This document shows, piece after piece, positions 53,410 through 55,743 of a DNA stretch of 64,000 nt. Under the pieces are notes generated by a model that saw only the letters and a list, made by a program, of their open reading frames with translations, was not told the origin of the DNA and searched no databases. The stretch's first letter is position 1. Every line of letters begins with the position of its first letter. The stretch is from the NCBI RefSeq assembly GCF_044324785.1, contig NZ_CP172127.1. One strand, given 5' to 3'. A program made the position numbers and the translations under genes. This stretch comes from Escherichia coli. GTDB taxonomy: Bacteria; Pseudomonadota; Gammaproteobacteria; Enterobacterales; Enterobacteriaceae.

Positions 53410-55743
53410 TTGGCCAACTCATCCTCACGATATTCCGTTCTGACTGCCGCCCACTGGGGGCCGATGCTGGTTGAAACCGACGGCGAAACCGTGTTTAGCT
53501 CGCGTGGCGCGTTAGTCACAGGAATGGAAAACTCCTTGCAGAGCGCGGTTCGCGACCAGGTTCACAGCAATACGCGGGTACGATTTCCAATGGTGCGCAA
53601 AGGCTTTCTCGCGTCACCGGAAAACCCGCAAGGCATTCGTGGGCAGGATGAATTTGTTCGCGTGAGTTGGGATGAGGCGCTGGATCTTATTCACCAACAA
53701 CATAAACGCATTCGTGAGGCTTATGGTCCGGCATCGATTTTTGCTGGTTCCTACGGCTGGCGTTCAAACGGCGTGCTGCATAAAGCCTCGACATTATTAC
53801 AACGCTATATGGCGCTGGCAGGCGGTTATACCGGGCATCTGGGGGATTATTCGACCGGTGCAGCACAGGCGATCATGCCGTATGTCGTGGGGGGCAGCGA
53901 AGTTTATCAACAGCAAACCAGTTGGCCGTTGGTATTGGAACATAGCGATGTCGTGGTGCTATGGAGTGCTAACCCACTCAATACGCTGAAAATTGCGTGG
54001 AATGCATCCGATGAGCAGGGGCTTTCTTACTTTTCCGCACTGCGTGACAGCGGGAAAAAGCTGATCTGCATTGATCCAATGCGATCGGAAACCGTCGATT
54101 TCTTTGGCGATAAAATGGAGTGGGTGGCACCGCACATGGGCACCGATGTTGCGCTGATGCTGGGGATCGCCCATACGCTGGTGGAAAATGGTTGGCACGA
54201 CGAAGCGTTTCTGGCGCGTTGCACCACAGGTTATGACGTCTTCGCCTCTTATTTGCTGGGCGAGAGCGACGGAATAGCGAAAACCGCCGAATGGGCGGCA
54301 GAGATTTGTGGTGTTGGCGCAGCGAAAATCCGCGAACTGGCGGCTCTTTTCCATCAAAATACTACCATGCTGATGGCTGGCTGGGGAATGCAGCGCCAAC
54401 AGTTTGGTGAGCAAAAACACTGGATGATCGTCACGCTGGCGGCAATGTTGGGGCAAATCGGCACACCCGGCGGCGGTTTTGGACTTTCTTACCATTTTGC
54501 CAATGGTGGTAACCCCACGCGCCGCGCTGCGGTGCTCTCTTCCATGCAGGGCAGCTTGCCTGGCGGCACCGATGCGGTGGATAAAATCCCTGTTGCCCGC
54601 ATTGTTGAAGCACTGGAAAACCCCGGTGGCGCATATCAACATAACGGTATGGACCGACATTTCCCGGATATTCGTTTTATCTGGTGGGCGGGCGGTGCCA
54701 ACTTTACTCATCATCAGGATACCAATCGCCTGATCCGTGCCTGGCAAAAACCGGAGCTGGTGGTGATCTCTGAATGCTTCTGGACGGCTGCGGCGAAACA
54801 CGCGGATATCGTTCTGCCTGCGACCACTTCGTTTGAGCGTAATGATCTCACCATGACCGGCGATTACAGTAATCAGCATCTGGTGCCGATGAAGCAAGTG
54901 GTGCCGCCACGTTATGAAGCGCGTAATGATTTTGATGTCTTTGCCGAGTTGAGTGAACGTTGGGAGAAGGGCGGCTATGCGCGGTTTACGGAAGGAAAAA
55001 GTGAGCTGCAATGGCTGGAAACGTTTTATAACGTTGCCCGGCAGCGCGGGGCAAGCCAGCAGGTTGAATTGCCGCCATTTGCTGAGTTCTGGCAAGCCAA
55101 CCAGTTAATTGAGATGCCGGAAAACCCGGACAGCGAGCAGTTTATTCGCTTCGCCGATTTTCGCCGCGATCCGCAGGCGCATCCATTAAAAACTGCCAGT
55201 GGTAAGATTGAAATCTTCTCGCAGAGTATTGCTGATTACGCTTATCCGGATTGCCCTGGGCATCCAATGTGGCTGGAGCCGGACGAATGGCAGGGCAATG
55301 CCGAACCGGAACAGTTGCAGGTACTTTCTGCTCATCCGGCACATCGTCTGCACAGCCAGCTGAATTACAGTTCTCTGCGCGAATTGTACGCGGTGGCAAA
55401 TCGTGAGCCTGTCACCATTCATCCTGACGATGCCCAGGCGCGCGGCATACAAGATGGCGATATTGTTCGGTTGTGGAACGCACGCGGGCAAATTCTTGCC
55501 GGAGCGGTCATTAGCGAGGGAATTAAACCTGGCGTGATTTGTATTCATGAAGGGGCATGGCCGGATCTGGATTTAACCGCTGACGGTATTTGTAAAAACG
55601 GCGCGGTGAACGTTCTGACCAAAGATCTCCCCAGCTCGCGGCTGGGGAATGGCTGTGCGGGTAATACGGCGCTGGCATGGCTGGAAAAATACAACGGTCC
55701 GGAACTGACACTTACAGCGTTTGAACCACCGGCCAGCTCATAA
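53410..55743 (+). CDS. bisC: biotin sulfoxide reductase (molybdopterin oxidoreductase)
   Basis: 777-aa ORF recognised as BisC. Confidence 0.95.

Follow-up and report, generated by a model that had tools for sequence, protein, structure and literature searches.

Conserved convergent overlapping gene pairs, in which two oppositely oriented genes overlap at their 3' ends, have been described in several species (Rogozin et al. 2002; Palleja et al. 2008, PMC2478687), and in such pairs the constraint on one gene dominates the shared sites. For most long convergent overlaps, conservation does not reach beyond very close species, and 3'-end extensions cause many of the convergent overlaps that have been reported (Palleja et al. 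2008, PMC2478687); one survey found 7% of the overlaps between well-characterised genes to be convergent. At the transcript level the closest systems are the convergent excludons, which are defined by transcripts that overlap at their 3' ends and by duplexes of the RNase III type (Sanmartin et al. 2025, PMC12288877), the suppression by Rho of convergent antisense read-through (PMC7815308), and 3'-overlap clusters such as fre-fadA, in which convergent 3' pairing gives RNase III products that are captured by p19 (Huang et al. 2020, PMC7373196). The p19 data also show that convergent 3' overlaps yield ~38-fold less dsRNA than divergent 5' overlaps (Huang et al. 2020, PMC7373196). Here we describe the overlap of bisC and yiaC in a 64-kb stretch of Escherichia coli DNA, the whole of which is referred to as the window. 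The overlap is an ordinary feature and is already known, being present in reference annotation and in transcript catalogues.

Coordinates and anatomy of the bisC-yiaC overlap

The bisC gene (53410-55743, plus strand) codes for a 777-residue biotin sulfoxide reductase and has a TTG start codon and a TAA stop codon, as given by the ORF list and by RefSeq for strain N3, and yiaC (55712-56152, minus strand) codes for a 146-residue GNAT lysine N-acetyltransferase in the ORF list, in RefSeq and in the MG1655 annotation. The two coding sequences meet tail to tail and share 32 nt, at 55712-55743; the first-pass annotation had put the overlap of the 3' ends at ~32 nt, and by the ORF list its coordinates are exact. 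The upstream operon partner of yiaC is tag (56149-56712, minus strand; RefSeq annotation), and these two genes overlap by the 4-nt sequence ATGA at 56149-56152. Comparison of both stop codons with reference annotation gives the same ends throughout: strain N3 is 100% identical to the window here and its RefSeq bisC and yiaC ends are the same, and the same 32-nt overlap is present in the RefSeq annotation of BW25113, O157:H7 and MG1655 (in the last of these yiaC is at 3713652-3714092 and bisC at complement 3714061-3716394). Neither gene contains an in-frame stop codon earlier than the annotated one, and none of these annotations gives either protein a shorter C-terminus.

Each stop codon is embedded in the coding sequence of the partner. 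The TAA of bisC (55741-55743, plus strand) is the complement of yiaC codons Ile137 (ATT) and Met138 (ATG), and the TAA of yiaC (55712-55714, minus strand, read from 55714 to 55712) is formed by bisC codons Leu768 (CTT) and Thr769 (ACA). Throughout the overlap the codon positions are paired as bisC 1 with yiaC 1, bisC 2 with yiaC 3, and bisC 3 with yiaC 2.

The protein families show how far conservation extends into the shared segment. Orthologues of bisC carry the Pfam domains Molybdopterin and Molydop_binding, and the C-terminal 199 residues of BisC align to within 2-4 residues of the C-termini of the crystallised Rhodobacter DMSO reductases (1EU1/1DMS) and of TorZ (7L5I); the alignment includes the motif ...EKY.G...T.T.F..P, and the BisC tail up to Pro774 is therefore ancestral to the DMSO reductase family. 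GNAT Pfam domains are present in YiaC, the orthologues of which are 146-148 residues long in every genus. In a 49-sequence alignment of the YiaC family, Met138 and Trp140 are at least 90% conserved, and after Trp140 the sequences have tails of 0-20 residues that lack conservation. In an AlphaFold2 model of YiaC (pLDDT 96.7), residues 133-140 form the last beta-strand and residues 141-146 a low-confidence coil (block mean pLDDT 68).

Conservation of BisC thus runs to Pro774, which ends at 55731, and that of YiaC to Trp140, the codon of which is at 55733-55735, such that the family-conserved cores of the two proteins abut without overlapping. YiaC residues 141-146 and the stop codon sit antisense to the conserved (L)TAF(D/E)PP of BisC, and BisC residues 775-777 and the stop codon sit antisense to the Ile-Met-Ser-Trp strand of YiaC, which is conserved as Ile-Met-x-Trp and includes Met138-x-Trp140. 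Because the cores abut, we propose that the 32 shared bases correspond to two dispensable tails. Both C-termini agree with the lengths of their orthologues and families, and on these alignments neither appears to be a 3'-extension misannotation.

Conservation and coding constraint at the junction

A 76-bp probe spanning the junction has matches in 5,421 of 5,426 complete E. coli genomes, all with at least 95% identity; the complete genomes include BE104, which has an engineered deletion of bisC that leaves yiaC intact. The window contains nine convergent pairs of coding sequences, of which bisC-yiaC is the sole overlapping pair and the other eight are spaced by 31-150 nt, a count that refers to the 64 kb of the window and alongside which published figures are used.

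Outside E. coli, scanning genomes with YiaC gave five loci, all in Escherichia, and the other genera were reached by protein search and exact-sequence contig look-ups. The 32-nt overlap is present in five non-coli Escherichia (E. albertii, E. whittamii and three further lineages) and is exact in Salmonella, Citrobacter rodentium, a Raoultella-like genome, Enterobacter ludwigii and Pseudescherichia. In Kosakonia and Lelliottia the two genes overlap by 38 nt, and the register, whether 32 or 38 nt, is kept in seven Enterobacteriaceae genera besides Escherichia. The first-pass suggestion that the overlap may be conserved in K-12 is therefore borne out by MG1655 and BW25113, and the conservation extends to these seven further genera; with orthologue lengths supporting both C-termini, this rules out chance as the source of the overlap.

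The two lengths stem from the BisC C-terminus, ...L-T-L-T-A-F-D-P-P-A-S-S, which contains two Leu-Thr pairs in its LTLT motif. In every taxon examined the yiaC stop codon is the complement of CTT or CTC followed by A at one of these pairs, and the overlap is 38 nt in Kosakonia and Lelliottia because their yiaC stop uses the first pair, the second being used in most genera. One further locus (P0135/L022), with a seemingly short-tailed YiaC beside a decayed bisC, was discarded as an assembly of bisulfite-converted reads that contains almost no C.

More distant relatives have a different arrangement. In Dickeya, where YiaC is 44% identical, tag-yiaC is intact and there is no bisC downstream, and in a second outgroup relative (L023) tag-yiaC is intact with bisC likewise absent downstream; in both, a spacer of ~450-550 nt and then unrelated genes lie 3' of yiaC. 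The tag-yiaC operon is thus older than its contact with bisC. Insertion of bisC here and its loss in Dickeya would both fit with this single named outgroup genus.

We compared per-site pairwise divergence among 11 lineages in the overlap, in the flank that codes for bisC only and in the flank that codes for yiaC only. Over all sites the values are 0.130 in the overlap, 0.200 in the bisC flank and 0.291 in the yiaC flank. Sites that are third positions of bisC and second positions of yiaC have a divergence of 0.278 in the overlap, with 0.424 at bisC third positions and 0.152 at yiaC second positions in the flanks, and sites that are second positions of bisC and third positions of yiaC have 0.051, with 0.062 and 0.504 respectively in the flanks. 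The substitution pattern within the overlap is therefore that of bisC, and the variants of the YiaC tail (PVVQTL, QADQTP, RADQTQ and others) track synonymous changes of bisC. At bisC third positions, divergence falls from 0.424 in the flank to 0.278 within the overlap, which suggests some constraint from the YiaC tail; this comparison rests on 10 sites.

Stop codon retention follows from the same arrangement. Across taxa the Ile codon of yiaC is either ATT or ATC, giving TAA or TGA as the bisC stop. The next in-frame stop codon lies 26-62 codons beyond that of yiaC (one codon in Ent. ludwigii) and 16-66 codons beyond that of bisC. The register is fixed because the yiaC stop sits within a conserved Leu-Thr codon pair of BisC and the bisC stop within a conserved Ile-Met pair of YiaC, and both stops are retained because they are locked in partner codons and their loss would add 16-66 codons in nearly every taxon; regulation is not needed to account for this.

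Termination and pairing of the convergent transcripts

The first-pass annotation had reasoned that there is no room for an intergenic terminator and that each transcript reads into the partner gene, and the data agree on both counts. There is zero intergenic DNA, and a scan for hairpins followed by U-tracts over 330 nt past each stop codon in nine taxa reveals no conserved intrinsic terminator. A terminator consensus scan gives six terminator-like sites, with 5.7 in shuffled sequences, and thus no excess. Folds of the junction on both strands show no unusual structure (z -1.5 to +1.3), and an Rfam search of the junction gives no match at E <= 1. The consensus scan and folding do identify a terminator-like hairpin on the minus strand inside bisC (55627-55649), 63 nt past the yiaC stop, which is probably nonfunctional as a terminator; it has a poor U-tract, and its stem is disrupted outside Escherichia, in C. 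rodentium, Kosakonia and others. On the plus strand, a 10-bp inverted repeat at 55772-55808 was likewise rejected, as three substitutions weaken it in K-12 and it is not conserved beyond Escherichia. The curated Term-seq 3' ends include none at MG1655 37134xx-37145xx (Adams et al. 2021, Supplementary file 1, PMC7815308), an absence that low expression could mask. At the Dickeya (L021) and L023 outgroup loci there is no clear intrinsic terminator 3' of yiaC, and loss of an ancestral terminator is thus unsupported.

Rho and NusG limit antisense transcription. A Rho termination region classed as antisense to bisC is reported at MG1655 3714344 on the plus strand, one entry in a table with dozens of other antisense ones (Adams et al. 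2021, Supplementary file 2, PMC7815308); its upstream/downstream coverage is 90/23 without bicyclomycin (BCM) and 60/112 with it, with a Rho score of 7.3 and a p value of 5.5e-14 (PMC7815308). This coordinate maps to approximately 55460 in the window, 252 nt past the yiaC stop, a position that is approximate given the 800-nt comparison windows used. The untranslated 3' extension of the tag-yiaC transcript that leads to it (55455-55711, minus strand, antisense to bisC) is rut-like, being C-rich and G-poor: from the yiaC stop to ~250 nt further on, the minus strand has 31-36% C and 17-26% G (C/G 1.05-1.9), and beyond this G equals or exceeds C. The composition between the yiaC stop and ~55460 is thus as would be expected of a Rho loading region. 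Two features of Rho-dependent terminators are therefore present, namely published read-through that is raised by bicyclomycin and C-rich, G-poor untranslated RNA upstream. Antisense RNA-seq signal in bisC is then the expected read-through from tag-yiaC and not a new antisense gene. The bisC transcript is assumed to terminate inside, and antisense to, yiaC or tag.

The overlap itself coincides with a published 21-bp duplex of the RNase III type, which is labelled 'bisC yiaC' (Huang et al. 2020, Table S3, sheet 'E 21-bp', PMC7373196) and matches the window exactly at 55724-55746. Its strands are AUUAUGAGCUGGCCGGUGGUU, with 184 reads, and CCACCGGCCAGCUCAUAAUCC, with 90 reads (Huang et al. 2020, PMC7373196); the former is yiaC-sense RNA (55744-55724) and the latter bisC-sense RNA (55726-55746). 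The duplex was captured by p19, has 2-nt 3' overhangs, and at 2.2 and 1.1 RPM is near the 1-RPM cut-off, as one among 1,225 in the sheet (PMC7373196). These data come from cells expressing p19, and they show that pairing of the two transcripts happens without implying that it is important. In addition, the convergent excludons that recur in half or more of 58 MG1655 transcriptomes number 165, and yiaC-bisC is one of them (ExcludonFinder, Table 1, PMC12288877). Published data thus provide two of the features of an excludon, transcript overlap in vivo and low-level RNase III processing of the paired region, and antisense interference between bisC and yiaC is no more than a possibility.

Explanations for the overlap and its relation to known systems

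We consider it highly probable that this is a genuine and ancient overlap of two functional genes, tolerated as a by-product, with its register fixed by coding and with Rho limiting read-through from tag-yiaC. By this account bisC would have come to adjoin the 3' end of tag-yiaC in an ancestor of the Enterobacteriaceae, juxtaposition being its most likely origin, and the junction would consist of two dispensable tails, each encoded antisense to the conserved end of the partner. The tag-yiaC transcript extends into bisC in antisense for ~250 nt, across untranslated C-rich RNA, and is ended there by Rho. With both genes transcribed, the two RNAs can pair at their 3' ends and RNase III cuts the duplex at a low level, and the overlap itself would be a tolerated by-product and not a regulatory device.

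The main alternative is that bisC and yiaC form a functional convergent excludon, in which transcription into the partner represses it through polymerase collision and RNase III cleavage of the paired 3' ends, giving reciprocal expression of the DNA-repair/acetyltransferase operon and the sulfoxide reductase, and for which the overlap has been conserved. The listing among the MG1655 convergent excludons (PMC12288877), the RNase III-type duplex on the overlap, the conservation of the register across genera and the lack of a terminator separating the genes are all compatible with this, but the conservation is fully accounted for by protein-coding constraint, as seen in the bisC codon pattern and the locked stops, and overlapping coding sequences give an excludon call by construction, since full-length mRNAs necessarily cover the 3' end of the partner. 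Moreover, the abundance of the duplex is at the threshold, convergent 3' overlaps are the class that is ~38-fold poorer in p19 dsRNA than divergent 5' overlaps (PMC7373196), and no expression data on the pair were found in the papers and supplements examined; we therefore regard this alternative as unlikely. A more specific form, to which we give slightly less credence still, is a selected coupling in which read-through from the constitutive tag-yiaC, set by the efficiency of Rho, adjusts the level of bisC mRNA by way of collision and of RNase III cleavage at the shared 3' end. If true, it would connect sulfoxide repair with protein acetylation and with the repair of DNA alkylation, and the fixed register in the Enterobacteriaceae would reflect selection on the coupling and not on the two proteins only.

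Two other explanations would make antisense read-through minimal or the overlap unreal. An intrinsic terminator common to the two genes, acting in both directions from within the coding sequences, could end both transcripts near the junction, and possible components are the GC-rich 8-bp minus-strand hairpin at 55627-55649, which is followed by AUCUUUGGU, and the plus-strand repeat at 55772-55808 with a run of seven T 24 nt later. The number of terminator-like sites is, however, that expected from shuffling, both hairpins lack conservation outside Escherichia, the plus-strand one being weakened already in K-12, the U-tracts are poor or distant, curated Term-seq 3' ends are lacking in the region (PMC7815308), and the BCM sensitivity of the downstream read-through points to Rho; such a terminator is quite improbable. 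The last explanation is an annotation artefact, such that one protein ends earlier, its 3' end having been extended, and the coding sequences do not truly overlap. Poor conservation and low model confidence of YiaC residues 141-146 would fit with this, but both ends are fixed by stop codons with no earlier in-frame stop, the length of YiaC varies by only two residues among genera, and a tail-less YiaC would still overlap the bisC stop, as Met138 and Trp140 are inside the overlap. The BisC tail is also homologous to the C-termini of the crystallised DMSO reductases, and 32 nt is below the range where misannotation dominates. We give an artefact the least weight of all, and it can be very nearly discounted. 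The tolerated by-product, with its register fixed by the two reading frames, is thus the explanation that we favour.

A practical consequence is that, when either gene is deleted cleanly or recoded, the last 32 nt of the partner must be left untouched; in one ΔbisC strain in RefSeq the deletion ends 8 nt short of the yiaC stop. Beyond such bookkeeping the overlap has little import, and it illustrates no new principle.

Comparison with the transcript-level systems shows both shared and distinguishing features. The pair is listed among the convergent excludons and has their defining signs, but in classical excludons the overlap is between UTRs and expression is mutually exclusive, whereas in bisC-yiaC the coding sequences themselves impose the overlap, and reciprocal expression is hypothetical. 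As in other cases of Rho suppression of convergent antisense read-through, there is a BCM-sensitive region on C-rich untranslated RNA; in most antisense Rho cases an intergenic gap precedes the antisense stretch, whereas in bisC-yiaC antisense transcription starts before the stop codon. The fre-fadA cluster resembles bisC-yiaC in its convergent 3' pairing and p19-captured RNase III products, but fre-fadA ranks in the top 20 clusters for abundance and involves a 3' UTR, whereas the bisC-yiaC duplex is near the 1-RPM threshold and is coding in both genes (Huang et al. 2020, PMC7373196).

The closest relationship is with the conserved convergent overlapping pairs (Rogozin et al. 2002; Palleja et al. 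2008, PMC2478687), with which bisC-yiaC has in common two genes with shared 3' ends on opposite strands, retention in several species and the dominance of one gene's constraint at the shared sites. Its length is of the form 3n+2, the phase reported to be commonest among convergent overlaps longer than 4 nt, and nothing essential is different, the pair being a well-conserved example that occurs in eight genera of the sample. Already annotated and catalogued, bisC-yiaC is a member of this well-described class, and its anatomy shows neatly, in textbook fashion, how such overlaps are able to persist.

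Antisense RNA and a hairpin within bisC

A further RNase III-type duplex captured with p19 carries the label bisC, and has the K-12 sequence UAUGCGCCACCAGGGUUUUCC with 261 + 170 reads (Huang et al. 2020, PMC7373196). It maps with one mismatch to window positions ~54615-54635, which is ~1.1 kb inside bisC, and antisense RNA is therefore present well past the published Rho-dependent termination region. The source of this RNA is either residual read-through or an internal antisense promoter. The minus strand of bisC also contains a GC-rich 8-bp hairpin of the CCCCAGCC/GCUGGGGA type at 55627-55649, made up of the bisC codons for L-P-S-S-R-L-G; it is kept in Escherichia, partly kept in Salmonella and Enterobacter, and disrupted in Citrobacter and Kosakonia.

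The overlap of bisC and yiaC places a practical constraint on knock-outs, of which Escherichia coli BE104 (NZ_CP040643.1) provides an example. The engineered bisC deletion in this strain stops 8 nt outside the yiaC stop codon (equivalent to window ~55704), leaving the last ~40 nt of bisC, and this remnant is labelled a partial pseudogene in RefSeq.

Gene order around tag and yiaC

The outgroup loci from Dickeya (L020 and L021) and a further outgroup (L023 and L024) keep both glyQS and tag-yiaC (locus positions 3501-4510), with ~450-550 nt of non-coding DNA to the 3' side of yiaC, and bisC is absent. Because these loci have yiaD or a ghrB-like gene further downstream of yiaC, the comparison suggests that the Enterobacteriaceae lineage gained bisC between yiaC and yiaD, or that these outgroups have lost it.

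On its other side yiaC shares a 4-nt co-directional overlap (ATGA) with tag in E. coli (window 56149-56152). In Salmonella, Enterobacter, Lelliottia, Pseudescherichia and a Raoultella-like genome tag is called as 193 aa, overlapping yiaC by 23 nt, and in Kosakonia the overlap is 20 nt; the 23-nt overlap lies at 3501-3523 in comparison loci L010, L012, L013, L015 and L016. The difference in length reflects true divergence between lineages, at either the C-terminus of tag or the yiaC start.

One apparent YiaC homologue, P0135, was rejected. Cytosine is almost absent from it and from its contig (L022, Logan SRR18107613), an assembly of bisulfite-converted enterobacterial reads, and the P0135 protein cluster is therefore an artefact in a public collection.

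Other features of the window

According to the annotation of strain N3, which is 100% identical at the bisC-yiaC junction, the window contains an RHS element core protein together with an Imm57 immunity gene (1-5213), a HicA/HicB toxin-antitoxin pair (14055-14667), a frameshifted DUF4862 pseudogene in the yiaK-S region (25848-26668), and a frameshifted wecH (43926-44920). RefSeq annotates a co-directional 23-nt overlap of xylH with xylG (37069-37091), longer than the 1-8 nt operon overlaps usual elsewhere in the window, such as selA/selB and ulaD/lyxK (4 nt each), araD/sgbU (7 nt) and sgbU/ulaD (8 nt).
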